A DNA stretch of 51,259 nt, from positions 79,432 to 130,690 of the forward strand of contig CBFHKH010000001.1 of NCBI GenBank assembly GCA_965656375.1. Reading direction: 5' to 3'. Shown here piece by piece: positions 11,788 through 50,084 of the stretch. The notes under the pieces were generated by a model, which saw only the letters and a list, made by a program, of their open reading frames with translations, ran no database searches and was not told where the DNA came from. A program made the translations under genes and the position numbers. The DNA comes from Minisyncoccia bacterium (GTDB taxonomy: Bacteria; Patescibacteriota; Minisyncoccia; Phycocordibacterales; UBA9973). How positions within the stretch are numbered: the stretch's first letter is position 1; each line of letters begins with the position of its first letter.

Positions 11788-11806
11788 GGTATAATACAGG
11801 TAATCT

Positions 11807-20438: not shown

Positions 20439-20439
20439 G

Positions 20440-20521
20440 TGCCGGAGGGGAGACTTGAACTCCCAAGCCTTGCGGCGCACGATTTTGAGTCGTGTACGTA
20501 TACCAATTCCGTCACTCCGGC
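20440..20521 (-). tRNA. trnL: tRNA-Leu (CAA)
   Basis: GCCGGAG/CTCCGGC acceptor stem, CACGA-CTCAAAA-TCGTG anticodon arm, long variable arm, TTCAAGT T-loop; CCA not encoded. Confidence 0.95.
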
Positions 20522-28563: not shown

Positions 28564-28613
28564 AAAAGCCCCCGATGGAGACAGAACTCCATAAGGGTCT
28601 TTTTCGTGGTTAT
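28560..28613 (-). ncRNA. Candidate ~50-nt small RNA convergent on the NYN gene
   Basis: Predicted from the promoter at 28620-28648. Folds as AAAAAGACCC / ATGGAG-N6-CTCCAT / GGGGCTTTTT and ends in a U-tract. Confidence 0.45.
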
Positions 28614-28619
28614 GTGCAC

Positions 28620-28648
28620 ATTATAACCATACCAGGATTTTTTTGCAA
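28620..28648 (-). promoter_or_regulatory. Sigma70-type promoter TTGCAA-N17-TATAAT
   Basis: TTGCAA at 28643-28648, exactly 17 nt spacer, TATAAT at 28625-28620 on the minus strand. Confidence 0.65.
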
Positions 28649-28734
28649 GTATTTGATTGGATAAAGACATTTTGCTAATCCTGCAAATTCCCCTCCCTTA
28701 CACCACATCATACAGATGGCTACAATGTAGCTAT

Positions 28735-30039: not shown

Positions 30040-30163
30040 ACAGGTATCGAGATAACATAAAAGACCATTTGGGAAGATTAAAAGTTACCACTTTGTGGTA
30101 TTGTAAATGGCTATCTATATAACTATTTTGTAATTCATTTTCTCTCACAAAAAACCTTATGTT

Positions 30164-30775
30164 ATGACCACCTTCCAGCTTATACCGGAAATGTTCCCAA
30201 TGATATTTCTACTGTCCTTTGGCTCAGAGGAGTTTTCAATTTTTCTTGCTTTGCTTGTAATAGGCCTCATAGCGTATATCGTTATAAAAGCAACTAACCG
30301 GTCAATACGGGTAGTACATGCTCATTGGCATCATATGTTTGATACCAGGCCATTTGCCCCCAAAGAGTTCTATGAATACCTGAAGAATGATATACAAGAA
30401 AAAGGAATTGAAGGCATTTCATTCAGGGGAATAGTACACTCTGAACGGGGGCTTCTCTCTGCCAATCGTGCATATCTGCGAATACTGTATCGGGAATATA
30501 TGATTGATGTATGTGCCGCTCCTTTTGCCAAGGAAGCTTTCTTTGTTTCCTGGTGGCTTGGTGATGCCGGGATTACCTTTCGTGATTTTCTGATATGCAT
30601 ACCAGCTATCGGCAGATTATTCAGCCGGAGAGAAAAGACCTTTTATGAACAGGACACCGAGATCATGTTCAAAGAAATTATTGCAGGCTGTGTCAGAGAT
30701 GCGATTGAAAAGCTCACCGAAGAAAAAGGAAAGCGATTAACAATGGCAGATTGGAGAGGTTCCGATATTAAATAA
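30164..30775 (+). CDS. Hypothetical protein with an N-terminal TM segment
   Basis: 203-aa ORF in the same orientation between two ATPase genes; hydrophobic IFLALLVIGLIAYIVI. Confidence 0.7.
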   Translation: MTTFQLIPEMFPMIFLLSFGSEEFSIFLALLVIGLIAYIVIKATNRSIRVVHAHWHHMFDTRPFAPKEFYEYLKNDIQEKGIEGISFRGIVHSERGLLSANRAYLRILYREYMIDVCAAPFAKEAFFVSWWLGDAGITFRDFLICIPAIGRLFSRREKTFYEQDTEIMFKEIIAGCVRDAIEKLTEEKGKRLTMADWRGSDIK

Positions 30776-30783
30776 AGTAATCC

Positions 30784-33700: not shown

Positions 33701-33831
33701 AACAGGTTATTAAAGGCTATCGGGTGAATGTAACCTATGATGCAGTTTCCCTTGAAGATATGCAGCGCAAACGGGCCTCTGTAGCACAAGTGGTGATGAA
33801 TTCGCTCAGAAAAAGAAAGAAGGGAAGTTAA
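30784..33831 (+). CDS. Large VirD4/TraD-like ATPase with an N-terminal extension and a C-terminal PD-(D/E)xK-like domain
   Basis: GATGTGKS, DPHGD, LYLDEFQNF, RKYNVGLTLSHQ; C-terminal HRYLQ...VDVLL...AIEIC. Confidence 0.8.
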   Translation: MMSLSHAEYYTYQYYTWEYRGRGWFVAEQPVCLEPPYIPFFRHGYTPQHVDDGKRHTLVSRFIEYIKGKKQEQPGEQKVLDYEELEPFGVEKETGLKAVQVKLPRERKITPEKMKALLVMLSQSGTTISFEIIGTAKEIVLQFVCSAADITITKTYLEAYFPEYTHISSDELLENIIVENKQTAVIDFGLQQEFVRPIQVVKNFTIDPLTGLFGILDQLHGDEQAGIQILFQGTVNHWSESIVRSVTMSDGSSFFNDDPNAPKVALEKIQSTLFGVTIRAFTHADTQADSFGIVQKLSYAIMNASVSTINQLIPLSSEDYDFETRVRDICLRESHRLGMLLNADELTTLLHFPSESISSKKLFASMRKTKEVPGIAKGKAFVLGENYHNGITGKVTFGIEDRLKHTHIIGATGTGKSTLIANLITQDIEQGHGIVLFDPHGDLVDDVIASIPEKRIQDVVLVDPSDTAYSVGLNILEAHSDVEKEVLSSDLVAAFRKYSTSWGDQMNAVFGNAILAVLENTEGGTLNDIRRFLIEKDFRQKYLKNVTDPSVIYYWQKEYPLIKTNSIGPILTRLNTFLRPRAIRNMVIQHKGLDFETLLNTKKIVLLKLSQGLIGTENSFLLGSLVLSKIHQAIFRRQQQAIRNPIFLYLDEFQNFITPSIKEMLSGIRKYNVGLTLSHQDLQQLQREDGELLNSVLGNINTRIVFRVGEPDAKKLQDGFTGFDFTDLQNLSRGEAVIRIEQPQYDCSLDTFALREVSGEQRKSNIESVTAFSRKEYASPREEVEKMLFETLDLEIQPTEKNDTPLHEVKEKKQKDEKLVPVVTDTDKPVATEKKSEPTKEVKEGKDITTHRYLQTLVKKMAESRGYIAVLETQVPDGSGLVDVLLTKENKTTAIEICSTTDADWEMHNIQKCIDAGYDTIISLCGDIKQLEKIKKKCLEYIPAITGKEVYFFTPDTLFAFLDTETKATVPPEQVIKGYRVNVTYDAVSLEDMQRKRASVAQVVMNSLRKRKKGS

Positions 33832-34173: not shown

Positions 34174-34245
34174 ACTCCCAGTAATGTTTTCATGTAGTTG
34201 AGCTGGTGGTTCTCAATCATATTTAATCACTCAAAACTATCTTTT

Positions 34246-35025
34246 ATGCGAAACAATTTTCTTTACCTGATTATTCTCACCGTATTCCTAGTATCCTGTG
34301 GAAGTTCACGCAATACGACTACTTCTGAACCTCCACTTATGCGTATCCCTGCCAAGTTTGATTTCAGTCCACCGTTTCGGGGAGTGGCAGGCTCAACCGG
34401 TATCACGATTGCCATAGTAAAGCCAACCTATGTAGGCAAGAATGCCGAGTACTATGTACCACCCTTCAATGAAATGGCTGCCAGTATGGGCAATGACTTT
34501 GAAGAACTCTTAACCGCCAAAGGCTTTACTATGAGGGGACCTTTTGGCTCACGGGATGAAATGGTGTATAACGACAAGATAAACTCAAGCTTTATCCTTG
34601 AGATCGGCATCGAACTTACCCCGCAATATAACCGGAAGTATGCCACTAGCACCAAAACAAACTGGGGCTCTATTCTTGACAAAAATGCTCCGGCAACTAT
34701 ATCAACACAGAGGATGAGTGGGGAAATAACCATTGCGGGGAATCTGGTCATCAATGCTAAATCCTCTCAGTACGGAGAACTGATATGGAAGAAGAACATT
34801 TCCCTTGAAGCCACTTCATTCACCTATGCAGGATCTCTCACCTGGGACGGTGTGCCAACGATGGCTGAAGAACTGAAGAAGGATAACCAGGTGTATAATA
34901 CACTTTCTTCTGAACTAGAGAAGTTCTATCAAAAAGCCTTAAGCCTTGCCTGGCAGCAGATTGACCCTGCTGAAATGAAGTCTGTGGCAGAACAGGCAAA
35001 GAAAGCAGACAAGAAAGGAAATTGA
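34246..35025 (+). CDS. Lipoprotein of unknown function (start moved to ATG 34246)
   Basis: MRNNFLYLIILTVFLVSC lipobox. Confidence 0.75.
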   Translation: MRNNFLYLIILTVFLVSCGSSRNTTTSEPPLMRIPAKFDFSPPFRGVAGSTGITIAIVKPTYVGKNAEYYVPPFNEMAASMGNDFEELLTAKGFTMRGPFGSRDEMVYNDKINSSFILEIGIELTPQYNRKYATSTKTNWGSILDKNAPATISTQRMSGEITIAGNLVINAKSSQYGELIWKKNISLEATSFTYAGSLTWDGVPTMAEELKKDNQVYNTLSSELEKFYQKALSLAWQQIDPAEMKSVAEQAKKADKKGN

Positions 35026-35368: not shown

Positions 35369-36817
35369 ATGAGTCGTACCCGACTCTTCATAACAACCCT
35401 GATCATGCTTGCTGCGCAATGCTGCACAGCACAGACTGACAGCGTATTAAAAAGCCTGGAGAACCTCCAGAAAGTCCCCGTTAAATATTTAGATGCTGTT
35501 GAGAACAAGATAGATAAATACAGCAACCGCATAACCGGCAAAACCGAAAAAACACTTGCCAAGTTGAGCAAGTGGGAGAATAAAATCAAAAGCATTTTAG
35601 ACCAGGTTAGTCCTGAAACTTCCGACAAACTATTTGGCAATAATGCCACCACTTTTACCAGTCTGCTTAAAAAACTGCAGGAGGGTAAAGCTATTGCAGA
35701 AGGGTACAAAACAAAATACAACGAGTACCGCGATAAACTAACAACCAGTGTAAAATACCTGGAAGATCAGAAAGACAAGCTGGATAAAAAGTTTGTGCAA
35801 CCCATCAGCAATACCAAAAAGAAACTGGAGGAACTGGAAAAGGATGTAAACAATACCGAAGCAGTGGAAGCTTTTATCAAAGAACGAAAAAAGCAACTGG
35901 TTGATGAAGCTTTCAAGTATTTGGGAAAAAGCAAGTACCTGACTAAGATAGACAAGGAGGCTTACTATTATGTGGAAACACTGCGTAACTACAAAGAGTT
36001 GTTCAACGACAAAAAGAAAGCTGAAGAGCTGGCGCTGAAACTGCTGAATAAAATCCCGGCTTTTACTGAGTTTGCCCAAAAGAACAGTATGCTGGCGCAG
36101 TTATTCGGCTCGCCATCGGGTGGGGGTAATATGGCAAACCTGGCCGGGCTGCAAACCCGTGCAGGTGTCAATGCTTTGATACAGAACCGGCTGGCAGCGG
36201 GTGGCCCCAGCGCCCGGGAAGCTTTCAGCCAGAACATGCAGCAGGCACAAGCCGAACTTACCCAATTAAAAGACAAGATCATGAAAGTCGGTGGCAGCAG
36301 CAGCGAAGCCAATATACCCAGCTTTAAACCCAACGAACAGAGATCAAAAACCTTTTTACAGCGGCTTGAGTTTGGCAGCAATTTTCAGTTTGCCAAAAAC
36401 AACAGCCTGGTGCCCACCACTGCTGACATTGCACTGAGTGTTGGGTACAAACTGAATGATAAATCAATCATTGGTATTGGTGCCAGTTATAAAATGGGAC
36501 TGGGCAGCATACAGCGCATCAGCATCAGCCACCAGGGCATCGGGCTCAGAAGTTTTATAGACTGGAAACTGAAGAAACAGTTTTTTGTAACCGGCGGGTT
36601 TGAGATGAATTACAATGCCCGGTTCAAAAATATAGATCAGCTGCAGAATTATAGCGACTGGCAGCAAAGCGGGTTAGTGGGACTGACCAAGAAATTAAAC
36701 ATCAAAACAAAATTCTTTAAAGGCACCAGTGTACAGTTATTGTACGATATGCTGTACCGGCAACACAACCCGGTTAGTCAGCCGGTGCTGTTTAGGATGG
36801 GTTATAGTTTTAAATAA
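35369..36817 (+). CDS. Exported protein: coiled-coil N-terminal half, probable outer-membrane beta-barrel-like C-terminal part
   Basis: Signal peptide ending CTA|Q, long K/E/L helical region, amphipathic beta-strand pattern, ends LFRMGYSFK. Confidence 0.6.
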   Translation: MSRTRLFITTLIMLAAQCCTAQTDSVLKSLENLQKVPVKYLDAVENKIDKYSNRITGKTEKTLAKLSKWENKIKSILDQVSPETSDKLFGNNATTFTSLLKKLQEGKAIAEGYKTKYNEYRDKLTTSVKYLEDQKDKLDKKFVQPISNTKKKLEELEKDVNNTEAVEAFIKERKKQLVDEAFKYLGKSKYLTKIDKEAYYYVETLRNYKELFNDKKKAEELALKLLNKIPAFTEFAQKNSMLAQLFGSPSGGGNMANLAGLQTRAGVNALIQNRLAAGGPSAREAFSQNMQQAQAELTQLKDKIMKVGGSSSEANIPSFKPNEQRSKTFLQRLEFGSNFQFAKNNSLVPTTADIALSVGYKLNDKSIIGIGASYKMGLGSIQRISISHQGIGLRSFIDWKLKKQFFVTGGFEMNYNARFKNIDQLQNYSDWQQSGLVGLTKKLNIKTKFFKGTSVQLLYDMLYRQHNPVSQPVLFRMGYSFK

Positions 36818-36836
36818 GTAATTCAATAATAATCTT

Positions 36837-39800
36837 ATGGTAAAAATGTTGTTTAGAAAATGTGTAGTTCTTGCAGTTTTTATTGCTGCAACATCGAAGT
36901 TACATGCACAGGCACAGGAAAATAATCCAATCAGTAAGATCACGATTGCGTCCCCAACGGCTGCATCACTTGGAAAATATGCTGATATACCTGTCAATTA
37001 TCATACTGGCATCCCCAAAGTTGATATACCTATTTATACAGTCTCTGCGGGACCATTATCATTGCCAATAAGCCTGAGTTATCATGCAGGGGGACTTAAA
37101 GTCCAAGAACCTGCAAGCTGGGTTGGAGCTGGCTGGGCATTGAATGCGGGAGGCGTGATAACCAGGAGCGTTATGGGCTCTCCTGATGAAAAGGGTACAA
37201 ATAACGGCGGGATCGAATTTAACGGTCATTTTAGCGATTATGGATATAATAATTATATCTGGAATCCGACATTGGGAGGGGGTAATTTCACAGGTGGTGA
37301 AGATTGGAAATTTGTTGCAGAAGGAAGACTGGATGGAGAGCCGGATCTTTTCTTTTTTAATTTTGGAGAATATAGCGGTAAATTTTATTTCCGGGACGAC
37401 AGGACGCCTGTTATCGTACCCGAGGCCGATTTTAAAATTGAACCTTATTATAATCCGCAGGGCAATATAAAAAGCATTCAAAGTTTTATAATAACCACTC
37501 CTGATGGGGTTAAATACTATTTTGGACAAACACCAGGTTTAACAGGTGTGGTGCCCATAGAAATTACCAATCCGGCAACACCCAACAATGGCGTTTCATC
37601 AGCTAATGTATATTCTAGCTGGTACTTAAATAAAATTACCACCGCTGATGAGCAGTTTTCTATTACACTCACCTATGCCACGGAAGACTACGGGTATCAT
37701 ACAGTTTCAATGTTCCCTATTGATGGTTCAGAACCGGCAGGAGGATACCCCACTTTTGGCGCAGCTCATGGGTATGACCTGGTAAAAAATATGGTTCATG
37801 GGGTAAGACTTAGCCAAATATCATTTCCTAACGGAACTGTTATTTTTTCAACCGATGGTATGTCTGCAAGATCAGATCTTAGTGATACAAATCCCTATTA
37901 TAATGCAGATGGATTAAATCAAAACGCAAAACCACTTGGAGCAATTGTGATCACGGATGGTACAAATCCTGTAAAGAAGTTTAATTTTTCATACGGATAT
38001 TTTGAAGATAATACAACACCCATACCACAGGATATAGCCAATTTTGCTCCTAATTTATTCACTGATAAAAAGCGATTGAGGCTTGACCAGGTCCAGGAAA
38101 TATCCGGTGATAATTCATTAAACAAACCACCCTATAGTTTTACTTATTTTAGTGAGCAGGTTCCCCGTCGGTTGAGTTTTAGCATCGATCATTGGGGTTT
38201 TAATAACGGGGTCACTAATAATACAGGATTAATACCCTCCTACCTTGAAACTACATTTAGCCATACAACCTCTCACCCCGGTGCCGACAGGGACTCTTAC
38301 TGGCCGGCAATGAGAGCAGGAAGTTTGCAGCAAATAAATTATCCTACCGGGGGATTCTCTCTTTTTGAGTTCGAAGCTAATACTGTTTATAATACCAACA
38401 CATCTAATGTTAATGTGCCATTGAGTAATCTAACTGTACATCTTTATGGCCAGAATACGTATACAAACAGCTCCGTATTTACAAGCAATGGGGCTTTTAT
38501 GAATCTTTCTGTAAACAACGGCACCAATTATCCTGCAGTATTTACCATCACAGATAACACTAATACCATTATTCATACCCAGAGTGTTCCGGAATATCAG
38601 AATTTCAGTGGTACCGTACCAATGTATCCGCAGGGAACTTATACTGCTAGGCTTACAATAAATAACAACTCTACAGGTGGTGCCCAATCTTCATTATCGC
38701 AATGGCAAACTGTTACAACAATCAATGACGTAATTGTTGGTGGCAACAGAATAAAAAAAATAACACATAATGACGGAGTTACAACAAATAACATGATCAC
38801 TAATTATGATTACAATGCTGATAATAATCATTCAAGCGCTATTTTATTCAGCAGGCCCGCTTATGTAGGTATTTTAAGAAATGATTTTATCAGGGATGTT
38901 GGCCTCCTGGATCCTTACTACGGTTACCAACCCACTTATGGAACTTATGGTTGTGCATATTGCAACTTGGATGGGGTGTGTTATTTCAAGTCGACTAACA
39001 GCATACGCCCGATGGCAACAACACAAGGTAATCCTTTAGGCTATTCACAGGTAAAAGTGTCACAAACAGGCAATGGCTATAGTATTTATAAATACTACGG
39101 TCCTACAAATGTTCAACCCTGGCAGGTTAATAACGGCGATATAGCTGTACGTACTGTAAACAGGCAAAATTGTGATAATAATTCTCAAAGTTATCCCTTT
39201 GCCCCATTGCCATATGATTTTCTGCGTGGCGAATTAAAGTATGAAGCACGCTTTAATGAGGCCAGTCAAATGCTTCAGGAAAAAATATATACGCCGGTTT
39301 ATGTAAACAATCCCATAAAGACACCGGGGCTGATTGCAACATCTACCGGAGCAGGTACTATCTTATCTACCAAATATGAATTAACCACAGCCCGTAAAAC
39401 ACAATCACAAGTAATTGAAACAAATTATGACCCGGCAACCAATACATCTTTAACAACAACCAGTACCTCGTACTTTGAAAGTCCGTTTCATAATAATGCT
39501 ACCCGAACTTCTGCTACAAACTCGAAAAATGAAGTATTGGAAACAAAGATGAAGTATGCTTTTGACTTCAGGATATCAAACTGTGAAAGTATTAGTGATG
39601 GATATGCACAATACAATACCGATTGTGCCACATGCCTTGCCAATAAAAATGCAGCCACTACAGCTTGTGGCAGTAATAATATTTGCCGAACCAATGCATA
39701 TCTCACTTATATGCATTGCCTGAACACTGCTAGGTCAAACTGGGTTGCTTACAGGCGTACAAATTTTACCGATCCGGTAAATACTTTTAAAACAAATCAT

Positions 39801-41006
39801 GATAATGCGAAAACAGGAGCAGATGCTGAATTAAAACCCATTTTGCAGCTCCAGGATGATTATTCAAACAACGCAATTGAAACTTCGAAATGGAAAAACG
39901 GCAATTTACTTGGCTCTACCTTCAGCAGGTTTGATTACAGTTCAAATCCGGCTGGTAAAGTATATATAAATAAGGTACAGACAATTAACCTGGGTGCTGC
40001 TTCTTCCACTTTCACTATTTCAAATACTAATGGAAGCAATAATGGTTTAATTAAAGACAACCGTTACCAAGATGAATCTTTTGCTAAATTCTACAATGGT
40101 AACCTGGCTGAGCTAACCTCCAGGGATGGCATAACCACTGCCTACATTTGGGGCTATAACAATACCTTGCCGATTGTAAAATCAATTGGAGTAAGCCATA
40201 GTACTTTATTATCAGCTTATAACGCAGTTGGAGGCAATCTTTCTCAACTTCGAAGCCAGCCTTCTATAAGCGGCGCCCAGTTAAATACGTATGTGTATAC
40301 ACCAATAACCGGAATGACTGCTGAAACAGATGTGAATGGAAAGAGTATGACCTATGAATATGATGCATTGCAAAGATTGCTACTGATCAGGGACTTTAAT
40401 AATAATATCATTAAGCAGTATGAGTACAAATACCAGGTTATGCCTCCGTCCGGCGCAGCTCAATGGATTGCCACCGGAGCCACCCGCTGTAAACCATGCC
40501 CGCAAAACAACAATTACATCAGCAATATTTTGCAGCAGGAGGAAAAGGATAACAATCCTCAAAGTGCCAGCTATAATACGCTACGCTGGACAGATATTGG
40601 TATTAGCAATGTTTGTGTATCAGTTGCAGATTGGCAAAATTCTTCTTTGGCTATACGTTGCCGGGTGTCGGATATTTCCGGCCAAAATACAGGCGAACAG
40701 GAACAGCAACAAATAGATATGAACCCATGCAGCAGTACCTACGGTCAGACAAGGTGGGTTGTGGTAGGTATTAATTACAGCATTTGCCCGCTTCCTGCAG
40801 GTTGCAGCAGCACAAACTGCACCGGGGTAGATAAAAAGTGTATTAACAATAATTGTGAAACAGGATCCAAAGTATATACAGGATCATACTTTGACAAAAA
40901 GACCGGGCAGTGGATGTGTATTTATCATTACCACTGGAGCGATGGAAGCAATAGTGTCGATTATTACGAACCTTCAACCGGGCAATGTATGTCAGGCGGA
41001 CTCTAA
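36837..41006 (+). CDS. Exported YD/RHS-repeat protein with an SpvB/TcB-like N-terminus and a Cys-rich C-terminal extension
   Basis: Signal peptide ending LHA|Q; TGIPKVDIPIY...LSLSYH...WVGAGWAL; YD-like repeats such as YEYDALQRL; no DPxG core motif seen. Confidence 0.8.
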   Translation: MVKMLFRKCVVLAVFIAATSKLHAQAQENNPISKITIASPTAASLGKYADIPVNYHTGIPKVDIPIYTVSAGPLSLPISLSYHAGGLKVQEPASWVGAGWALNAGGVITRSVMGSPDEKGTNNGGIEFNGHFSDYGYNNYIWNPTLGGGNFTGGEDWKFVAEGRLDGEPDLFFFNFGEYSGKFYFRDDRTPVIVPEADFKIEPYYNPQGNIKSIQSFIITTPDGVKYYFGQTPGLTGVVPIEITNPATPNNGVSSANVYSSWYLNKITTADEQFSITLTYATEDYGYHTVSMFPIDGSEPAGGYPTFGAAHGYDLVKNMVHGVRLSQISFPNGTVIFSTDGMSARSDLSDTNPYYNADGLNQNAKPLGAIVITDGTNPVKKFNFSYGYFEDNTTPIPQDIANFAPNLFTDKKRLRLDQVQEISGDNSLNKPPYSFTYFSEQVPRRLSFSIDHWGFNNGVTNNTGLIPSYLETTFSHTTSHPGADRDSYWPAMRAGSLQQINYPTGGFSLFEFEANTVYNTNTSNVNVPLSNLTVHLYGQNTYTNSSVFTSNGAFMNLSVNNGTNYPAVFTITDNTNTIIHTQSVPEYQNFSGTVPMYPQGTYTARLTINNNSTGGAQSSLSQWQTVTTINDVIVGGNRIKKITHNDGVTTNNMITNYDYNADNNHSSAILFSRPAYVGILRNDFIRDVGLLDPYYGYQPTYGTYGCAYCNLDGVCYFKSTNSIRPMATTQGNPLGYSQVKVSQTGNGYSIYKYYGPTNVQPWQVNNGDIAVRTVNRQNCDNNSQSYPFAPLPYDFLRGELKYEARFNEASQMLQEKIYTPVYVNNPIKTPGLIATSTGAGTILSTKYELTTARKTQSQVIETNYDPATNTSLTTTSTSYFESPFHNNATRTSATNSKNEVLETKMKYAFDFRISNCESISDGYAQYNTDCATCLANKNAATTACGSNNICRTNAYLTYMHCLNTARSNWVAYRRTNFTDPVNTFKTNHDNAKTGADAELKPILQLQDDYSNNAIETSKWKNGNLLGSTFSRFDYSSNPAGKVYINKVQTINLGAASSTFTISNTNGSNNGLIKDNRYQDESFAKFYNGNLAELTSRDGITTAYIWGYNNTLPIVKSIGVSHSTLLSAYNAVGGNLSQLRSQPSISGAQLNTYVYTPITGMTAETDVNGKSMTYEYDALQRLLLIRDFNNNIIKQYEYKYQVMPPSGAAQWIATGATRCKPCPQNNNYISNILQQEEKDNNPQSASYNTLRWTDIGISNVCVSVADWQNSSLAIRCRVSDISGQNTGEQEQQQIDMNPCSSTYGQTRWVVVGINYSICPLPAGCSSTNCTGVDKKCINNNCETGSKVYTGSYFDKKTGQWMCIYHYHWSDGSNSVDYYEPSTGQCMSGGL

Positions 41007-41017
41007 AAATATTAACA

Positions 41018-41545
41018 ATGAAATTATTAGCAACCTTATTATTGATTACGGGAGGTTTCCTTCCTTCCAGTATTTATACAAAGCAATTTACCAACCTGGA
41101 GGGCACCAATATAAGCCTGGCGCAATATCAGGGTAAAAGAATTTTACTGGTAAATGTTGCCTCGCAAAGCGAATATGCCGCTGAGCAGTTGCCGCAACTG
41201 GAACAATTGTACCAGCAACATAAAGACAGCCTAGTGGTAATCGCATTCTCGTCAAATGACTTTGGTAATGAACCACGCACTGATGCAGAGATTAAATTGT
41301 TGATGCAGTACAGTTATGATGTTCATTTTCCGGTATCAGTAAAGTGTACAGTTAATGACGGCGTTGCAAACACCCATCCTGTTTATGTCTGGCTTCAAAA
41401 TCAAAATGAGAATGGGAGCCTGGGGGTGAAAGTGCAAAAGGATTTTCAAAAATATGTAATAGATAAGGATGGAACACTGATCGGCGTTTTTGGAGCTAAG
41501 ACAAAGCCAATGGACAGTGCGATCATTAAAACCATCACACAATAA
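41018..41545 (+). CDS. Glutathione-peroxidase-like (thioredoxin-fold) exported protein lacking the peroxidatic Cys
   Basis: YQGKRILLVNVASQSEY, AFSSNDFG.EP, HPVYVWL and FQKYVIDKDG align by eye with GPx motifs. Confidence 0.8.
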   Translation: MKLLATLLLITGGFLPSSIYTKQFTNLEGTNISLAQYQGKRILLVNVASQSEYAAEQLPQLEQLYQQHKDSLVVIAFSSNDFGNEPRTDAEIKLLMQYSYDVHFPVSVKCTVNDGVANTHPVYVWLQNQNENGSLGVKVQKDFQKYVIDKDGTLIGVFGAKTKPMDSAIIKTITQ

Positions 41546-41572
41546 TATTCATACCTACTAATTGTAATAAAT

Positions 41573-44500
41573 ATGGCTTCGAGAAAACTCTATACCCTGC
41601 TGCTTCTATCCATGGTATTTGGCTCTTATGCAATGGCTCAAACACCAGCGCCATACCAGCCCAATGTTAAAATAAATTATATCAGGGAATGGTCTCCCAC
41701 AGCACCTATAACAGATGCCACACAGGTGCCAATACGTGTAGTTGAAGAGGTAAAAACTTCAACAGCCTACGTTGACGGCTTGGGAAGGCCCTTACAGAGT
41801 ATCAGTAAACAGGCCTCGCCGTTAAAAAAAGATTTAGTGAGTGCGGTTGTATATGATGAATTGGGAAGAGAAACATATAAGCACCTCCCTTTTGTTTCTT
41901 CCAACACAACCGGAGGTTCTGAAATTACTGATAATGGTTCTTTTAAATTGAATCCTTTTCAGCAGCAACAGATATTTATGACAGCGCAGTATGGCAGCCA
42001 AGGTGAAACCTATTTTTATAGCCAGACCGATTATGAAGCGTCACCTTTAAACAGACCAGTAAAGAGTTTTGCGCCGGGTAACAGCTGGGTGGGCAGCAGG
42101 GGAACCGGAAATGAAAAATCTGTGCAGCAGCAATATAGCTTTAATAGTGTGAATGATGAGGTAAAGGTATTTACTATTTCTGCTGCACAAGGGAGCTTTC
42201 CAACCAGCAATTCGGATTATGGTCCGGGTCAATTGTTTAAGAATACGGCAATAGATGAACGTGGTAATAAGGTGGTGGAATTTAAAGACAAAGAAGGTAA
42301 GATAATATTAAAAAAAGTTCAGGCAGCAAATTCTGTAGCAGACGGACATGACGGTTGGCTTTGTACCTACTATATTTATGATGAGTTTGGACAGCTTCGC
42401 TTTGTATTGCCTCCAAAAGCTACAGAGGCATATATTAATAATGCATCCATTAGCAGTCTAGCAGATGAACTCTGCTACAGGTATGAATACGATGTCCGTC
42501 ACAGAATGATTATCAAAAAGTTGCCCGGTTCAGCAGAGATTTGGCTGGTATATGATTCCAGGGACAGGCTGGTGATGATGCAGGATGGTAATTTACGAAG
42601 CAGTAGTAAATGGGTTGTTACGGTATATGATATATTGAACAGACCGATACAAACTGGATTATTAACAGATGCTAATACAACATTTGCCACACACCAGAAT
42701 AATGCAGCTGGGTCAGCCAATTACCCACCAACAAGCGGATTTGAACTGTTGGGCGAAAATTATTACGATGATTATAGCTGGGTGGCTGCAAGCGGTACAT
42801 CGCTAACTGCAACAGTTGATGCAGCCAATTTTAACAACAACGATTATTTTATCACCAGTTATAATGCAGCACCGGCTTATGCATTGCCACTTGCAGCAAA
42901 TTATAATATTAAAGGGTTACCAACGGGAATCAAATTAAAAGTATTGGGTACAACAAATCAGTTTATTTACTCTGTTTTGTTTTATGATGAGAAAGGAAGA
43001 GCTATACAATCACAAGTAATCAATATAAGCGGGGGCAAAGATATTACCACTACGCAATATGATTTTAGCGGTAAGCCTTTGAGAAGTTTGATTCAACATA
43101 ATAAGGGTGGTAACAATCCTCAAAGCCATACGATAATAACGAAATTGGAATACGACCATTTGGGTAGAATTACTTATGTACGTAAAAAAATTACATCGGT
43201 AGTAAATAATCAGAATATAACCACACCGGAAAGAACTCTTATACAGAATAATTATGATGAATTGGGTCAGCTTAAAGCAAAAAAAATTGGTAACAAACCA
43301 GGCAGCGTTGAAGAGCTGGAAGCTCTTAATTATGATTATAATATACATGGCTGGCTGCTGGGTGTTAACAGGAATTATATAAATGCGGCATCAGCAGATG
43401 GAAACTATTTTGGTTTTGAATTAGGTTATGATAAACAGGCTGCTGCAGTAACTGGCACTAATTATACTAACCCCCAATTTAACGGTAATATCAGCGGCAG
43501 TACCTGGAAAAGCAAGGGGGATAATGAAAGGCGTAAATACGATTTTACTTATGATAATGTGAACCGGCTTTTACGGGCGGATTTCTCGCAGTACACAGGA
43601 GGCAGTTTTAATACCAGTGCTGGTGTGGATTTTACGCTTATAATGGGTATTAACGGCCAGGATTATACCAGTGCCTACGATGCCAACGGAAACATAAAAA
43701 AAATGCAACAGTGGGGGCTGAAAATAAATGCCAGTGCACAGATTGATGATCTTGATTACAGCTATTACGACAATAGTAATAAACTTAAAAATGTACGGGA
43801 TGCGCTGAATGATGCAACAAGCAAACTGGGCGATTTTAAAACCTCCGGATTTCACCCGCAGAATTCATCAAAAGCAGCGGCTACGACACAAACACTAAGG
43901 GATGCCATAACTGACTATACTTATGACGCCAACGGAAATTTAAAAAGGGATTACAACAAGGATATTGGTGATGCTGGTACCGATGGTATGCTGTATAATT
44001 TTTTAAATCTGCCCTCTGTAATTACTGTAAAAAAAGATGCAACGGTAAATAATAACAAAGGTACAATCACTTATACCTATGATGCCAGCGGGGCAAAACT
44101 CAAAAAGGAAACACAGGAATTAAACAGTACTGTAGCATATAATGGAACAAACTATATCAGTAATATTATAACGGTTACCACTTATATTGCCGGGTTTGTT
44201 TACCAATCCAAAAATTACAGCAATACAGCCTTGGCTTCATTAAATGAGGATGAAATATTACAGTTTACCGGGCAGGAAGAAGGAAGGATACGGTTTATAC
44301 CTGCAACCGGCAACAAGCCTGCAGATTTTGCCTACGATTATTTTATAAAGGACCACCTGGGTAATACACGCATGGTGCTTACAGACGAAATGCAGCAGGA
44401 TATTTACCCTGCAGCCTCTCTAGAACCGGCATTGGTGAATACTGAAAGTGCATTCTATACCATTGACCAAGGTCGCATTGAATCAAAGACAGCCATTATA

Positions 44501-46093
44501 GGGATGAATAATATCAATTATCCCAATAATAATGGTATACTTAATAATAATCCAGACTGTGGTAGCGGCACTTTGTGTACTACCGATAACAGCACCAAAC
44601 TATACCGCCTTAAAAGCAATGAGGTTCAAACCGGTTTGGGAATTACCTTAAAAGTAATGGCTGGCGACAGGCTGGATGTGTTTGGAAAAAGCTTTTATAA
44701 CCAGAACAATCCTGGAAGTGGATATAGTAATACTTTACCGATACTTGACCTGCTGGCAGGATTTTTAAACAGTTCCGGGGGTATTGTATCTCAAAGCAAG
44801 GGAGCAGTAACACCCGCACAGATAAATACAACACAGGGTACACAGGGCATCAATAGTATGACGCTTCAGCAAACCAATCAGCATAGTAATTATCCCCTTA
44901 GACCACTTGCTTTCATTAACGTAATATTCTTTGACGAACAGCTAAAAGCGGTTGATTATAAAGTTAGTATGGTGGGCGATAACGGTGTTTTGAAAGATCA
45001 TTATACAGAGTTGCAAAATCTAACAGTTCCAAAGAATGGATTTGTGTATATTTACTGTAGTAATGAAACTCAGGTAAATGTGTTCTTTGACAATATTCAG
45101 GTTGTACATACAAGAGGGCCTATTCTTGAAGAAACACATTATTATCCATTCGGTTTGATAATGACTGGAATAAGTACCACTGCAAGTAATAAACTGGAAA
45201 ATAAAAATAAATTTAATAGGGGCACAGAATTAAATACTGATTTTTCACTTAATATATATGAAACGGATTTTAGAAATTATGATGCACAAATAGGGAAATT
45301 TTTCCAAATAGATCCACTTGCAGATGCCATTGATTTTCAAAGCCCATATTCTTTTGCGGATAACAACCCAGTATCATTAAATGACCCATTAGGACTTGAG
45401 GCTGAGGAGGCAGATTCCGATAAGGGTAAAAAGGGAAAGAAGCAATCTAAGGAATCTTCTTCCAATCAACACACTCCCAAAAAAGTAGTAGTGCCTGGCA
45501 AAACTGTTGCCAGAGTTACACCGGTTTCGCCAACACCGGTGCCTCTTCCTCCTGTGCCCCCACCTAGCGTAACACCTACACCGGTTGAGCCACCAATTCC
45601 AACTCCAACTACACCACCAATTCCTGAGGTGAATCCGCTGCCAGAACCGACACCTGTTCCAGCTCCTCTTTTACTCCCTGCTGTATTTACTGCGATTCTC
45701 GTCGGGATACCAATTTCTACTGGAACCGAAATTACTCCACAAGAAAAAGAAAAATTTTGGTGGGATAAAACGAGATATGATCCTTATCCGGGACATGGAA
45801 ATAAAAAAGAAAATCGGAATAATCATATTGTTTATTGTTTTACTTTTACTCCGATTGATGGATTGACGCCTGTACTAAAATATGGTATTTCTGATGAATT
45901 TAGGTATAGCTTAGATAGACCTGAAAGACAATTATATGGCCTACAATTGAAATATGGATGGAGCGTTAAATTAACAATTTTGATGCGTGCGCCTAATAGA
46001 GAGTTAGCTCTGTTATATGAACAGCAGCTCGTAATTAATCATCAATTAGCTTGGAAAGGAGCGAATCCTAGAGCACAGTTTAGGCCATTTTAG
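41573..46093 (+). CDS. Exported RHS repeat-associated-core polymorphic toxin (DUF6443-like N-terminus)
   Basis: Signal peptide ending AMA|Q, YVDGLGRPLQ, YFIKDHLGNTR, ETHYYPFG, RNYDAQIGKFFQIDP, NNPVSLNDPLG, then a variable tip. Confidence 0.9.
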   Translation: MASRKLYTLLLLSMVFGSYAMAQTPAPYQPNVKINYIREWSPTAPITDATQVPIRVVEEVKTSTAYVDGLGRPLQSISKQASPLKKDLVSAVVYDELGRETYKHLPFVSSNTTGGSEITDNGSFKLNPFQQQQIFMTAQYGSQGETYFYSQTDYEASPLNRPVKSFAPGNSWVGSRGTGNEKSVQQQYSFNSVNDEVKVFTISAAQGSFPTSNSDYGPGQLFKNTAIDERGNKVVEFKDKEGKIILKKVQAANSVADGHDGWLCTYYIYDEFGQLRFVLPPKATEAYINNASISSLADELCYRYEYDVRHRMIIKKLPGSAEIWLVYDSRDRLVMMQDGNLRSSSKWVVTVYDILNRPIQTGLLTDANTTFATHQNNAAGSANYPPTSGFELLGENYYDDYSWVAASGTSLTATVDAANFNNNDYFITSYNAAPAYALPLAANYNIKGLPTGIKLKVLGTTNQFIYSVLFYDEKGRAIQSQVINISGGKDITTTQYDFSGKPLRSLIQHNKGGNNPQSHTIITKLEYDHLGRITYVRKKITSVVNNQNITTPERTLIQNNYDELGQLKAKKIGNKPGSVEELEALNYDYNIHGWLLGVNRNYINAASADGNYFGFELGYDKQAAAVTGTNYTNPQFNGNISGSTWKSKGDNERRKYDFTYDNVNRLLRADFSQYTGGSFNTSAGVDFTLIMGINGQDYTSAYDANGNIKKMQQWGLKINASAQIDDLDYSYYDNSNKLKNVRDALNDATSKLGDFKTSGFHPQNSSKAAATTQTLRDAITDYTYDANGNLKRDYNKDIGDAGTDGMLYNFLNLPSVITVKKDATVNNNKGTITYTYDASGAKLKKETQELNSTVAYNGTNYISNIITVTTYIAGFVYQSKNYSNTALASLNEDEILQFTGQEEGRIRFIPATGNKPADFAYDYFIKDHLGNTRMVLTDEMQQDIYPAASLEPALVNTESAFYTIDQGRIESKTAIIGMNNINYPNNNGILNNNPDCGSGTLCTTDNSTKLYRLKSNEVQTGLGITLKVMAGDRLDVFGKSFYNQNNPGSGYSNTLPILDLLAGFLNSSGGIVSQSKGAVTPAQINTTQGTQGINSMTLQQTNQHSNYPLRPLAFINVIFFDEQLKAVDYKVSMVGDNGVLKDHYTELQNLTVPKNGFVYIYCSNETQVNVFFDNIQVVHTRGPILEETHYYPFGLIMTGISTTASNKLENKNKFNRGTELNTDFSLNIYETDFRNYDAQIGKFFQIDPLADAIDFQSPYSFADNNPVSLNDPLGLEAEEADSDKGKKGKKQSKESSSNQHTPKKVVVPGKTVARVTPVSPTPVPLPPVPPPSVTPTPVEPPIPTPTTPPIPEVNPLPEPTPVPAPLLLPAVFTAILVGIPISTGTEITPQEKEKFWWDKTRYDPYPGHGNKKENRNNHIVYCFTFTPIDGLTPVLKYGISDEFRYSLDRPERQLYGLQLKYGWSVKLTILMRAPNRELALLYEQQLVINHQLAWKGANPRAQFRPF

Positions 46094-46110
46094 AATTTTA
46101 ATTCAATAAT

Positions 46111-46944
46111 ATGAAAACACAGCTCAAATTAAATTCAGTAGTTCCTCATGGAGTCGGTAGTAGTTCAGAATCAGGAGCTATTGATTTTATATATAGTTAT
46201 CTTCTTTCCGCTTACCAGCAAGATTCTTATAGATTCATTTCAATTAACCAAATTGGTAGTGAGTTGAATGAATTTGTATTAGAAGAAAATGGAAAGCATG
46301 TTCATGTAAATATTCGCTACCCAGTATATGAAGATTTTGAAAACAAATCTGATTTTGAAAAAAACCTAATAAGACTTGAGATTATTCATTCTGCATTATT
46401 AAGAATAGCAAATGAATATAGTAAATTGAATGTCCAAAGACTAATTGAAATAAAGGAAAATATACTACTTAACAAATTCTCTTTTGATATAGAATATAAA
46501 ACACATATAAACATTAAAAAACCTAATCTTATTGCTAAAATTGTAGTCAATCCAGAAATAAATAAATTTAATTTTTTTTGTGTTATTGAAGATAAAGGAA
46601 AAGTATTGTGTAAAATCAAAATTTACTCTGGGTTAACAAACATGTATTATTTCAGAGATTTTTTCTCTATTGTGAAATGGAATTCAGATGACGAAATAAT
46701 AATTACAGGCAAAGCAAAAGAAGTAAAGATTTCTATTTTAATAAATAACTGTGAAATAAATTTTACTAACTTAACTAGGTATGAAAAACCACCGTATTTT
46801 GAGATGATGAAATCAGATGTTTCTGCAAAAGAAAGAGGGACCGCATATAATAATTGGTTGAACTCACAACCTTCAGAAATTTCAAGAGTAATTAAAGAAA
46901 ATAATGATACTTCATTCTACCCAGATTCAGCTTCCGAATCTTGA
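46111..46944 (+). CDS. Putative cognate immunity protein
   Basis: Starts 17 nt after the toxin stop and is AT-rich like the toxin tip; no recognisable family. Confidence 0.65.
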   Translation: MKTQLKLNSVVPHGVGSSSESGAIDFIYSYLLSAYQQDSYRFISINQIGSELNEFVLEENGKHVHVNIRYPVYEDFENKSDFEKNLIRLEIIHSALLRIANEYSKLNVQRLIEIKENILLNKFSFDIEYKTHINIKKPNLIAKIVVNPEINKFNFFCVIEDKGKVLCKIKIYSGLTNMYYFRDFFSIVKWNSDDEIIITGKAKEVKISILINNCEINFTNLTRYEKPPYFEMMKSDVSAKERGTAYNNWLNSQPSEISRVIKENNDTSFYPDSASES

Positions 46945-47089: not shown

Positions 47090-47158
47090 ATGATTACCGA
47101 CCAGAACAAGCAGATACAAAATATTGAGTACAATTATTTAAACCTACCAGCAGTGATA
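47090..47158 (+). pseudogene. Orphan RHS fragment
   Basis: Encodes ITDQNKQIQNIEYNYLNLPAVI, matching DYNK...YNFLNLPSVI in the upstream RHS gene. Confidence 0.55.
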
Positions 47159-47892
47159 AGGTCTCTCAAAGAACCATTTCGACAAAGACACCCGCCAAAA
47201 CAAAAGAACAATTGCGATTACCTTTTTGAAGCCCTTTGATTGCATCGCAATACTTCTTTTGCCCTTCGGGTTGCTTCGCAATTTTGTCACATTCTTTGTA
47301 GCTCAATGTTCCTTTGTTCAGGAAACTCCTGTGTCTGAAAAGCAACTACACCCTCACTCTTTTACCCATACTTCGCTCTGGCTTGGTTTCGTGTAGCTAG
47401 GCTATTGTATTTCAGTACGGCAATAGCTACCCAAACCATAATACTATTCCTCAGCTATTTGCACGTATTTCATACAATGCTTTCCATACACTTCACCATG
47501 CCCCGCTTGTATGGAAGTTCCGGTATAGTCCCTTTTCATCCACCCGTTTCCAATAATTTGGCGAGCCGGCGGCCACTGTCTGCGTTTGGTGCTGCCGTCA
47601 CAAGGCTACCCCTATACCTTTGTATGCTCTATGGCAGCACCGCACTGTGTATTCAGATTCCTTACAGTCATACCCCTAAATACGCCATCCAGTGGCGCTC
47701 GCAGACCCATCCAATCGTACCTCATTCCTGTGTCTTTGCTGGCTCGCCCCGGAGCTACGGTGTTGAAAGCTTTCAACACGGCTCTGGCTTCTTTTGGCTG
47801 AGGGCTCCTTTACCGGAAAATATTAACAGAGAAAAAAATGACAGGAAGATTAACAAAAATATTTATATATTGTGTGTGTTAAAACCGAAATG

Positions 47893-48140: not shown

Positions 48141-50084
48141 ATGAATTGCCCAAAACTGCAAGAAAATATCAGGTTAAATATAGACAACCTAATTGTAAGT
48201 TTAAAGAACCATCAATTGGATGATGGTGGTTTTAGGGGGTATCACCTGTTTGATAAAAAAAGCGGTATCTGGTCAACCTGCGAAATAGTTCATGTTCTTT
48301 CAAAAGTACAACCAAGCTTGGTAGAAAAAGAATGGCTACAAAATGCAGCTAAATATGTCGCCTTAAATCAAAATAAAGATGGCGGTTGGGGTTTTAGAGT
48401 AAAGGGTAAATCAATTATTGATGTTACGGCTTGGGCATGCCTTGCATTGAGCCATTTCAATTACCATGAAGAACTATTGAAAGGGGTGTCTTTTTTGCTA
48501 AATACCAAGGTTAATTTAACCGAAGAAGATAAAGGTGGCTGGGGTCTAACTAATTATGAACCAGACAGAATATACTCTACATGGATTGCTGCAAACTGCT
48601 TAACAAAATTGTCAAGTCAATTAAAAAATTTATTCGATAGCAAGCAGCTTGATGATATTTATACTGTTATCCGAGAATCACAAAAATGGTTAGTCAGTTC
48701 AAAGAATGCAGATGGCGGCTGGGGTTCTTTGGGAGATGAAACTTCAACATTAACAAGTACAGCAATAACCCTCATAAGTATTTTCAGCAATGGCGAGGAT
48801 CCGGCAAATTATCGTGAATCTTTTTCTTTTATTAAAGAACGGGCTTTAGACAATCTGTGGGAATTAGAGCGTGAAATTGTTATCACACAAGAAGGGTATG
48901 AATTAACACAGGAATGGTTTACCTCTGTTTACTGTTTTAGGGCTTATATATTTTTTGCAGAGTTAGGGATTTGTTCACTTCAGGAACTGCACTCCACATA
49001 TCTTTCATTGGTAAAGTTAATTCAAAATGGAAAAGTGAAGCCGACAAATGAAGGTTCTTTAGATTTAATCTGGACAATTCCATTTATGATTGAGGCATTA
49101 GATAAATTCCATCACTTTACGATTATAAAAAGAAAAGAGTATGACGATTTTCTATATCAGAAAGATATAGAGGAAAAAAAGCAAAAGAAAAATGAAATGG
49201 AAGGGTATTTAAAAAATCTTTTTCCATTCCCTATCAGCCAGGTTTATTTTTCATTTAGCCATGAGCTTGATCACCACAGGAGGTTTCAATATTTAGTACA
49301 ACTCTATGAAGTGATAATTAAATTTACTGCTATAGTATCATTATCATCAATAATTGCAGCCAATGAGAAAATACCTCAACTGGAAGCACTTGTTAAGAAC
49401 CGCCTTAAAAAACCATCTTTGGGTGACTGGGTAACCATTATTGATATGCTTTTCAATTTTTCCACTAAAGTCTTCAATATTACTTATCCTTGGGAGAAAG
49501 AAGAACTATTAAAACGGCAGGCAGGCTTTATAGATAATGAAAGCCCAAGACTTAATTTAAACCAGGTGTTGTCAGAAATTGTATCACTAAGAAATAACTG
49601 GACAGGGCATGGCGCAGTACGGTCAGTGTATGAATATAAAATGGAAATTGATAAACAGGTTCCTATCCTTTTTTCGCTATTAAACCGATTGATGTTTTTG
49701 GCAAAGTGTAATTCATTCTTGATACTTGCCTCTGAGTATAATGAGTTTGGTGACGGAGATTTGTACAAAATTAGGGTATTCAATGGCCTTGATATACTTG
49801 ATAATGATCTTGAAGTTCAAAAAAGACTATCTGAGGGGCATAAAGACCAATTGATAAGGTACGTTTACTTTCACAATATGGAGAGCAATACAATCATCAA
49901 TTTATACCCATTTCTTTCCTATATGGTATGCCCTAATTGCAAAAAAGAAAGATTTTTCTTTTTCAATGGAATAAAAACAAGCGATAAGTCAACCTATTTA
50001 TCATTTGAATGCGGTCATACAATTGAATATGACAATATGAATCATTTTGAAAAAAGGTTTTCGGCGATTGGTATTCAATTTTAA
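48141..50084 (+). CDS. Prenyltransferase/squalene-cyclase-like (QW-repeat) domain fused to a C-terminal HEPN-like domain
   Basis: QLDDGGF, QNKDGGWG, KGGWG and NADGGWG repeats; C-terminal FPFPI...KPSLGDW...LRNNWTGHG. Confidence 0.65.
   Translation: MNCPKLQENIRLNIDNLIVSLKNHQLDDGGFRGYHLFDKKSGIWSTCEIVHVLSKVQPSLVEKEWLQNAAKYVALNQNKDGGWGFRVKGKSIIDVTAWACLALSHFNYHEELLKGVSFLLNTKVNLTEEDKGGWGLTNYEPDRIYSTWIAANCLTKLSSQLKNLFDSKQLDDIYTVIRESQKWLVSSKNADGGWGSLGDETSTLTSTAITLISIFSNGEDPANYRESFSFIKERALDNLWELEREIVITQEGYELTQEWFTSVYCFRAYIFFAELGICSLQELHSTYLSLVKLIQNGKVKPTNEGSLDLIWTIPFMIEALDKFHHFTIIKRKEYDDFLYQKDIEEKKQKKNEMEGYLKNLFPFPISQVYFSFSHELDHHRRFQYLVQLYEVIIKFTAIVSLSSIIAANEKIPQLEALVKNRLKKPSLGDWVTIIDMLFNFSTKVFNITYPWEKEELLKRQAGFIDNESPRLNLNQVLSEIVSLRNNWTGHGAVRSVYEYKMEIDKQVPILFSLLNRLMFLAKCNSFLILASEYNEFGDGDLYKIRVFNGLDILDNDLEVQKRLSEGHKDQLIRYVYFHNMESNTIINLYPFLSYMVCPNCKKERFFFFNGIKTSDKSTYLSFECGHTIEYDNMNHFEKRFSAIGIQF

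Follow-up and report, generated by a model that had tools for sequence, protein, structure and literature searches.

The window analyzed here, a 51,259-nucleotide (nt) stretch of contig CBFHKH010000001.1 from the Minisyncoccia bacterium assembly GCA_965656375.1, carries a cassette of five genes on the forward strand. Two of them encode large proteins, named here B (1389 amino acids, aa) and C (1506 aa), which probably form a Sec-exported RHS polymorphic toxin of Chitinophagaceae, split into two chains in the manner of TcB and TcC of the Tc toxins and most likely directed against bacteria. This pairing, already proposed in an original prediction made from the DNA sequence, is supported by the first rank of TcB subunits in fold searches with B, the strict co-encoding of B and C, and their natural fusions. 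The summed length of the two chains adds support for a split BC shell.

Organization of the cassette

The first gene of the cassette encodes a 482-aa protein (35369..36817, +). It is followed by the genes for B (36837..41006, +), a GPx-like protein of 186 or about 175 aa (PF00255; 40985/41018..41545, +), C (DUF6443 and RHS-associated core; 41573..46093, +), and a 277-aa protein without a family match (46111..46944, +). The gaps between these open reading frames (ORFs) are 19, 11, 27, and 17 nt long, as expected from the original description of five co-oriented genes 11–30 nt apart. The N-termini of the 482-aa, B, GPx-like, and C proteins are each composed of a basic n-region, a hydrophobic h-region, and an end of the A-x-A/AQ type; signal-like peptides had been noticed on these four genes before. 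Sequence inspection and hydropathy reveal no such signal-type N-terminus in the 277-aa protein. Domain scans of all window ORFs of at least 150 aa detected no TcA, VgrG, PAAR, or sorting domain of the type IX secretion system (T9SS), in agreement with their earlier reported lack.

Predicted structure of the B protein

The B protein is composed of a signal peptide (residues 1–24, +), a conserved core delimited by comparison of homologues (about residues 25–1190, nt 36909–40406, +), and a variable Cys-rich C-terminal domain (about residues 1200–1389, nt 40434–41003, +). The core of about 1190 aa is common to the homologues of B, and the C-terminal domain differs among them, being DUF5977, CBM_4_9, PPC, or missing altogether in other members. 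A single RHS/YD repeat is recognizable in B, at residues 1161–1188 (+; E-value 0.001, below the Pfam cut-off), not the many that had been assumed. The companion claim that B has no cleavage core is upheld, as Pfam and NCBIfam scans found neither an RHS core nor a T9SS C-terminal domain (CTD) in the protein.

The structure of B residues 25–1224 was predicted by AlphaFold2 from 35 sequences with a predicted local distance difference test score (pLDDT) of 83.1 and a predicted template modeling score (pTM) of 0.83. A Foldseek comparison of the model to the PDB places TcB subunits at the top, with E-values from 3.7e-18 to 1e-15 and TMq of 0.34–0.38. The best matches are TcdB1 (6l7i_F; 3.7e-18, TMq 0.38), YenB (5kis_A and 4igl), and TcdB2-TccC3 (4o9x). 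Rhs cocoons from type VI secretion systems (T6SS) and teneurins also match the model, with a TM of about 0.1. The predicted shape of B is specifically TcB-like, because TcB chains rank first in the Foldseek search and self-contained Rhs proteins reach a TM of only about 0.1.

The resemblance of B to TcB is found at the level of the fold only. The SpvB/TcB-like motif that had been read in the N-terminus of B is detected neither by Pfam nor by profile searches of PDB sequences, in which the N-terminal B profile did not find TcB and the full B profile matched a single YD repeat of Tre23 and nothing else. Single-sequence phmmer searches of PDB sequences with B and with C gave no matches, and Pfam scans of sub-regions of B were empty.

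Between loci, the identity of the 482-aa protein to that of the window is uncoupled from the identity of B, and even anticorrelated with it (Spearman -0.41; loci L004–L159 compared to the window). Loci in which the 482-aa protein is 75–81% identical carry a B protein at only about 25%, and in locus L007 the two values are 81% and 27%. The 27%-type B is collinear with the B family over its full length. Judged from these alignments, at least two deep types of B appear to be shuffled between cassettes on a conserved 482-aa backbone, which fits the expectation for a specificity module. Since the C-terminal domains are exchanged (a Cys-rich one in the window, and CBM, PPC, or DUF5977 at other loci) and B types are shuffled, we speculate that B, through its C-terminal domain, is the part that recognizes the target.

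The C protein, its toxin tip, and immunity

The C protein is composed of a signal peptide, a DUF6443 domain that holds YD-type repeats (residues 39–179, nt 41687–42109, +; 4.9e-43), RHS repeats, an insertion of about 240 aa (about residues 945–1185, +), for which a Pfam scan is empty, an RHS core (TIGR03696; residues 1190–1275, nt 45140–45397, +; 2.8e-10), and a hypervariable tip (residues 1276–1506, nt 45398–46090, +), in that order. The core ends with the autocleavage motif PxxxxDPxGL ('PVSLNDPLGL', residues 1266–1275), so that the RHS core and toxin tip ascribed to C from the outset are both present. No PAAR, VgrG, or other T6SS-loading domain and no T9SS CTD were found in C. The profile of the C family matches SGS1, YenC2 (a TcC, 2.8e-12), RhsA, and teneurin-like proteins in the PDB, via the core only.

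An alignment of 30 members of the C family is conserved through the DPxG motif at residue 1274 and unalignable beyond it. D1247 and G1274 do not vary in this alignment, and conservation is 90% or more at D1271 and P1266. Read from the motif, D1247 and D1271 would be the counterparts of the catalytic aspartate pair in the RHS core; PDB entry 6h6f, met in the Foldseek list of B, is a D651A mutant of TcC. The tips differ from locus to locus, as 37 of them fall into 36 clusters.

The tip encoded in the window contains a charged stretch, a Pro-rich stretch of about 70 aa, a 27-aa hydrophobic segment (residues 1359–1385, nt 45647–45727, +; hydropathy peak 2.03), and a nuclease-like last part of about 100 aa. 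The toxin domain (residues 1413–1496, nt 45809..46060, +) matches Tox-URI2 (PF15653) below the threshold, over positions 3–86 of the 86 positions of the profile. The signature of Tox-URI2 is 'Y, KxG, [EQ]' (PMC3482391), and the tip has 'IVY...KYG', which fits its Y, KxG part. The domain is probably a nuclease of the URI/GIY-YIG fold. The hydrophobic segment and the Pro-rich linker, considered as general features of the tips, occur in only 2/39 and 0/39 related tips, respectively, and are therefore specific to the tip of the window. Perhaps they serve its entry into the target.

Only two homologues of the tip were found among 5.8 billion proteins (P0241 and P0242). Both are short stand-alone ORFs, and each is located immediately 5' of a homologue of the 277-aa protein (52% and 41% identity, respectively). 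Because both tip homologues adjoin such a gene, the 277-aa protein, which has no match in Pfam or NCBIfam, appears to be the cognate immunity protein of the tip. It would be cytoplasmic, since it lacks a signal peptide, and this location fits a toxin with a cytoplasmic target. The cassette thus has the conserved delivery part, the unrelated tips, and the immunity gene directly downstream that define polymorphic toxin–immunity systems.

A relic of an RHS gene is positioned 3' of the immunity gene (47099..47173, +; tblastn E-value 0.071). Its translation, DQNKQIQNIEYNYLNLPAVI, matches the family consensus DxNKxIxxIxYNxLNLPxxI better than a chance likeness to the intact gene would. Relics of this kind typically remain at Rhs loci when tips are replaced.

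Natural fusions of B and C

Three metagenome loci (L156, L149, and L154) encode B and C as a single chain. The 2369-aa ORF of L156 starts with a signal peptide and the B core (profile positions 10–1190, residues 5–1244). About 15 residues after the core, C begins at its profile position 49, with its own signal peptide gone, and continues through DUF6443, RHS repeats, core, and tip. The fusions of L149 and L154 are similar. The L156 fusion contains neither the variable C-terminal domain of B nor the insertion of about 240 aa in C, and both are therefore add-ons. At the junction, the last YD-type repeat of B (FEFDNFQRL...YEYNY) is followed by the first repeats of DUF6443 (YMDGLGRP..., YDQYGRE), an arrangement that by analogy mirrors TcB running into TcC. 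The summed length of the shell is close to that of the Tc pair, with about 1190 aa of B core and 1000–1240 aa of C compared to about 1450 aa of TcB and 690 aa of TcC. The lengths of TcB and TcC were taken from the PDB chains matched by Foldseek and from the 690-aa construct of YenC2.

The fusions also bear on a different reading, which we consider quite unlikely, in which C is a self-contained Rhs cocoon similar to those of T6SS Rhs effectors, WapA, and bacterial teneurin-like proteins, and B is a separate exported adhesin, receptor-binding protein, or chaperone. The terminal YD repeat of B runs into the first YD-type repeats of C across a linker of about 15 aa, the structures nearest to B are half-shells of TcB and not adhesins, and B always comes with C (36/37 loci, the exception being a fragment of B). 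Independence of the two proteins is favored by the pre-core region of C, which at about 1000–1200 aa is about as long as whole Rhs cocoons (target lengths 1020–1084), by the one recognizable YD repeat of B, by a profile–profile comparison that found no homology between B and C, and by the CBM- or PPC-type binding domains of B relatives.

Conservation and distribution of the cassette

A synteny scan of one genome per species, searched with the alignment of the 482-aa family, returned 74 loci. All of them belong to Chitinophagaceae or Chitinophagales, often with several copies per genome. For the comparison of loci, ORFs were called and searched with the window proteins, and loci with at least 9.5 kb of downstream sequence were counted (n = 48). 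The order of 482-like, 1389-like, and DUF6443-RHS genes on one strand is kept in 48/48 of the genome loci, and the gene arrangement of the cassette is therefore far beyond chance. The GPx-like gene is present in 18/48 of the same loci. Of the four genes for which a synteny survey in Bacteroidota had been proposed, three hold together in all 48 loci, and the GPx-like gene does not.

As a reverse test, metagenome contigs were collected starting from the B family. An RHS gene is positioned downstream of B in 36 of the 37 loci with sufficient flank, and in the remaining one B itself is a truncated fragment. The 482-aa gene is present in 48/61 loci, in 45 of which it is directly upstream of B. The complete genome of Paraflavitalea soli contains B, GSHPx, and DUF6443-RHS genes without the 482-aa gene, and in a Fulvivirgaceae contig the gene after B encodes a protein with DUF6443 that exceeds 3800 aa. 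Ferruginibacter sp. SUN106 (L021) is a carrier of the 482-aa, B, and C trio. As the B–C pair persists in the 13/61 loci and in P. soli, where the 482-aa gene is lacking, it forms the core of the cassette, and the third member, the 482-aa gene, is very frequent and restricted to certain lineages. The cassette is widespread in Chitinophagaceae (Bacteroidota) from soil, water, and wastewater.

Two neighbors of the cassette in the window recur at related loci. A lipoprotein-like ORF (34198..35025, +) with an LVSCGSS motif has a same-strand counterpart immediately 5' of the 482-aa homologue in 6/47 loci, and scans for families gave no match. It may be an occasional accessory of the cassette, and its membership is uncertain. 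TraG-like ATPases (28657–33831) were considered as a part of the cassette and not adopted: they recur upstream of the 482-aa homologue in 9/47 loci, mostly of close relatives, and their recurrence is therefore explained by shared ancestry.

It is highly improbable that the cassette encodes an anti-eukaryote Tc-like toxin acting on protists, nematodes, or insects, freed by lysis or in vesicles and served by an A component from elsewhere. Pfam marks of TcA are missing from about 150 loci with 10-kb flanks, although the search for tcA at related loci covered the fetched flanks only. Classical BC pairs act with TcA on animal cells, and TcC genes are also known as orphans at a distance from tcA and tcB (PMC7861908). 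However, signal peptides on all parts of the cassette are unlike classical Tc proteins, and a dedicated cytoplasmic immunity gene accompanies the tip. The extreme diversity of the tips, the several copies per genome, and the RHS relic are hallmarks of interbacterial polymorphic toxins.

The 482-aa protein

The 482-aa protein is composed of a signal peptide, a helical domain of about 280 aa (residues 25–307), Gly/Ser linkers, and a β-domain of about 150 aa (residues 331–479), and its chain ends with GYSFK. It has more than 2480 homologues, the named ones belonging to Chitinophagaceae or Ferruginibacter. The family contains 730 clusters at 50% identity (E-value of at most 1e-30), nearly all of them 470–500 aa long and aligned end to end. 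No Pfam family was found in 47 diverse members, and searches of PDB sequences gave coiled-coil noise only.

An AlphaFold2 model of the protein, calculated from 36 close homologues, has low confidence and contains helices in residues 25–307 followed by eight strands in residues 331–479. In the alignment, hydrophobic positions alternate with polar ones along each of the eight strands, and the C-terminus reads GYxF(K). A Foldseek search with this weak model (pLDDT 48) gave almost only transmembrane barrels, with E-values of at least 1.7e-3, among them designed barrels, OmpA, OmpX, Ail, and OmpG. The 482-aa protein thus likely forms a small barrel in the outer membrane, preceded by a helical domain. 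The original prediction of a coiled-coil/β-barrel partner stands with respect to co-conservation and to a probable helical and small-barrel architecture, the barrel itself being suggested by modeling. According to the usual rule for even-stranded outer-membrane barrels, an N-terminal domain is positioned on the periplasmic side. The helical domain of the 482-aa protein would therefore face the periplasm.

The 482-aa protein had also been proposed to display or secrete the shell. The periplasmic orientation of its helical domain and its absence from 13/61 loci and P. soli do not favor this role, and a barrel of about 150 aa and eight strands is too small to be a pore for a folded shell of about 300 kDa. 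Related to this proposal is the possible but unlikely reading in which delivery is the work of the 482-aa protein: as a 'mini-TcA' or a new outer-membrane translocon, it would be an oligomeric barrel or a helical channel, export or display the BC shell, and hand the toxin over to the target. In the tcA-tcB-tcC order, the place of the 482-aa gene is that of tcA, its linkage is near-perfect, and the architecture of its product is uniform over the 730 clusters. The helical domain is highly conserved and retains several motifs across 36 close homologues at 65–86% identity, which makes the helical region unlike a plain spacer. The fused B–C lineages have a T9SS-sorted surface protein upstream instead, which suggests a general need for a surface partner. 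Besides the small β-domain and the loci without the gene, this reading is opposed by Pfam and PDB-sequence searches, in which the protein shows no similarity to TcA, Omp85/TpsB, secretins, or autotransporters, and by the identity of the 482-aa protein, which does not track that of B. We regard as rather doubtful, too, the wider suggestion that the family is the outer-membrane part of an undescribed Sec-dependent route that mounts or releases the periplasmic BC shell without TcA, T6SS, or T9SS, making the cassette an 'A-less' Tc-like contact weapon.

Among the loci without the 482-aa gene, a shared alternative upstream partner was found in only the three with B–C fusions (L156 3131–4552, L154 3569–5125, and L149 3729–5285). 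This protein of about 470–518 aa is unrelated to the 482-aa family and carries a T9SS CTD (Por_Secre_tail, 2.1e-05, slightly below the cut-off). At another locus without the 482-aa gene (L123, 4478–9613), a B–C pair is located on the same strand directly 3' of an ATPase of the type II secretion system/type IV pilus kind and a secretin. The upstream genes there are T2SSE (2.1e-127), the secretin (1.3e-35), and a further two that are small; the arrangement was seen once (n = 1) and may be coincidence. The T9SS-sorted protein upstream of the fusions and the secretin locus are leads on the exit of the shell.

The GPx-like protein

The GPx-like protein matches PF00255 (7.6e-21) and aligns with yeast Hyr1 (3cmi, 3.7e-21). 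At the catalytic residues of Hyr1 it has Ser in place of Cys, Asp in place of Gln, Lys in place of Trp, and Asp in place of Asn, and no conserved Cys is present among 24 homologues. Of 98 B–C loci, 47 have no gene between B and C, 28 have a GPx-like gene there, and the others contain unrelated small proteins with signal peptides, one family of which has a bacterial Ig domain. The gene is thus present in about 29–38% of loci (28/98 and 18/48). The earlier assignment to the GPx family is correct, but the role of a helper does not fit a Cys-less pseudo-enzyme of such frequency. A function as a redox helper is rejected, because all four catalytic residues are lost. From its sequence, the protein appears to be an optional, non-catalytic exported accessory.

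Proposed assembly and action of the toxin

We hypothesize that Sec carries both B and C over the inner membrane. Once periplasmic, the two would be joined by their YD sheets, with the last YD repeat of B meeting the YD-type repeats in DUF6443 of C, so that a single shell is closed. The core, as an aspartyl protease with D1247 and D1271, would then cut after DPLGL, leaving the tip of about 230 aa, with its putative URI-fold nuclease, Pro-rich linker, and hydrophobic segment, loose within the shell. The 277-aa protein would neutralize toxin that reaches the cytoplasm of the producer. The 482-aa protein may be an outer-membrane-anchored helical protein that docks or organizes the shell and does not form a pore for it. 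The crossing of the outer membrane by the shell would be performed by a component other than those recognized in the cassette.

Several observations weigh against a Sec-exported split BC toxin of this kind. The TM-scores of B to TcB are moderate (0.35–0.38), and SpvB and TcdB_mid were not detected in B by Pfam and NCBIfam, including a search of the N-terminal 321 aa at an E-value of up to 10. The pre-core region of C has the length of a whole T6SS-type Rhs cocoon (about 1000–1200 aa), and the case for a shell shared by B and C is built from fold analogy, linkage, and fusions. The signal peptides of the 482-aa, B, GPx-like, and C proteins were judged by sequence features, and the match of the tip to Tox-URI2 is below the threshold (E-value 0.021, 15.6 bits compared to a cut-off of 20). 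The 482-aa gene is missing from 13/61 (21%) of the B–C loci, its product was modeled from 36 close homologues at a pLDDT of 48, and the barrel, strand count, and topology of the protein are derived from that modeling. No route across the outer membrane was found for the shell.

Other features of the window

The remaining content of the window comprises housekeeping genes, two tRNAs, and several TraG-like ATPases. Four paralogous ATPases of the TraG/TrwB/HerA-like type (399–1874, 11807–14107, 28657–30039, and 30784–33831) share 34–51% mutual identity. A treble-clef zinc finger, zf_Tbcl_2, is present in the ATPase at 11807–14107 and in its non-ATPase neighbors at 7424–9115 and 10075–11787. Three paralogous ORFs of about 570 aa (3959–9115) and an NYN-domain protein (28066–28563) are positioned beside the ATPases. 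The two sets (399–14107 and 28066–33831) look like a separate conflict or mobile-element system.

Downstream of the cassette, a 647-aa protein (48141–50084) without a signal peptide contains an N-terminal α–α toroid similar to prenyltransferases and terpene cyclases, with a weak TED-like match, and C-terminal CxxC motifs. A 503-aa fusion (17296–18807, −) has the unusual architecture of an N-terminal HTH_3 domain and a full domain of the EPSP-synthase fold (4e-40). The 5' end of an ORF with a LAGLIDADG domain (19872–20521, −; 1e-10) overlaps a tRNA gene (20440–20521, −).

Comparison to known systems

RHS and Tc shells are a general packaging of toxic proteins. To our knowledge, how they are delivered is understood in two cases only, TcA injectors and the T6SS. 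The closest relative of the cassette is the BC subcomplex of Tc toxins (TcdB2-TccC3, 4O9X; YenB-YenC2, 4IGL), which is a two-chain RHS shell encoded in the order B, then C, as predicted here from genes and models. The predicted fold of the cassette B is closest to TcB. In both systems, the C protein finishes with an RHS core, which holds the aspartyl autoprotease with its DPxGL, and with a toxin that is hypervariable; the profile of the cassette C matches YenC2. Fusions of B and C, natural and engineered, exist in both systems, and the summed lengths of the shells are similar.

In contrast to Tc, the 482-aa, B, GPx-like, and C proteins of the cassette have Sec signal peptides, of which the fusion keeps the first one only. 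Neither TcA nor a lysis cassette of the type X secretion system kind is located nearby. The cassette B lacks detectable SpvB and TcdB_mid, is about 280 aa shorter than TcB, and has a variable C-terminal domain, whereas C is about 300–500 aa longer than TcC and begins with DUF6443. The cassette also has an immunity gene, and its host phylum is Bacteroidota. A survey of Tc loci from 2021 assigned 96% of TcC to Proteobacteria and 3% to Firmicutes and required Pfam-detectable TcA or TcB neighbors (PMC7861908), a criterion that would miss the cassette family.

A 'TcdB/TcaC' trafficking class, in which a signal peptide is combined with SpvB, an integrin-like propeller, RHS, and a variable toxin, was described by Zhang, de Souza, Anantharaman, Iyer & Aravind in 2012 (PMC3482391). 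The class comes with immunity genes, and Bacteroidetes are among the many phyla listed for it (PMC3482391). The single-chain fusion of L156 fits this description. The cassette differs in being split into two genes, in a B protein too divergent for the SpvB model, and in the added conserved 482-aa partner of outer-membrane type and the pseudo-GPx accessory. The claim of an 'undescribed delivery system' was thus overstated, as a class with signal peptides that includes Bacteroidetes has been catalogued since 2012 (PMC3482391). In the literature searched, the coverage of which was incomplete, we found no prior description of the cassette, its 482-aa partner, the pseudo-GPx, or DUF6443.

The Rhs effectors of the T6SS (RhsA, Tse5, Tse15, and RhsP) resemble the cassette in the RHS cocoon and its core autoprotease, in polymorphic toxins that are paired with immunity genes, and in the presence of orphan relics. 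They differ in that the cassette has signal peptides and lacks PAAR, VgrG, and the clade domain, and their structural match to B is poor (TM about 0.1). WapA of B. subtilis and bacterial teneurin-like proteins share with the cassette a Sec signal peptide, a toxin-holding YD shell, an immunity gene, and the lack of an obvious delivery machine. Unlike the cassette, they consist of one chain each, with a lipid, an S-layer domain, or a cell-wall domain as its anchor, and have neither a TcB-like partner nor a barrel protein. Bacteroidota are not reported among the hosts of the teneurin-like proteins, the delivery mechanism of which 'remains to be elucidated' according to their authors (PMC13018210). 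Two-partner secretion by CdiB-CdiA is also a toxin operon with its own upstream gene for an outer-membrane β-barrel, a predicted one in the cassette. However, CdiB belongs to Omp85, has 16 strands as well as POTRA domains, and threads an unfolded filament, whereas the 482-aa protein has a β-domain of about 150 aa without a match to POTRA or ShlB, and the cargo of the cassette would be a folded shell.

The cassette extends BC-type toxins to a phylum missed by Pfam-based Tc surveys and offers a likely function for three families without one, namely the 482-aa, B-like, and DUF6443 families. It provides a compact and genetically tractable case for the question of how a folded shell of about 300 kDa would pass from the periplasm to a neighboring cell, and the same question of delivery applies to bacterial teneurin-like proteins and other Sec-dependent RHS toxins. 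Among these systems, the cassette is distinctive in being common in Chitinophagaceae, split like TcB and TcC, Sec-exported, and equipped with its own partner of the outer-membrane type.

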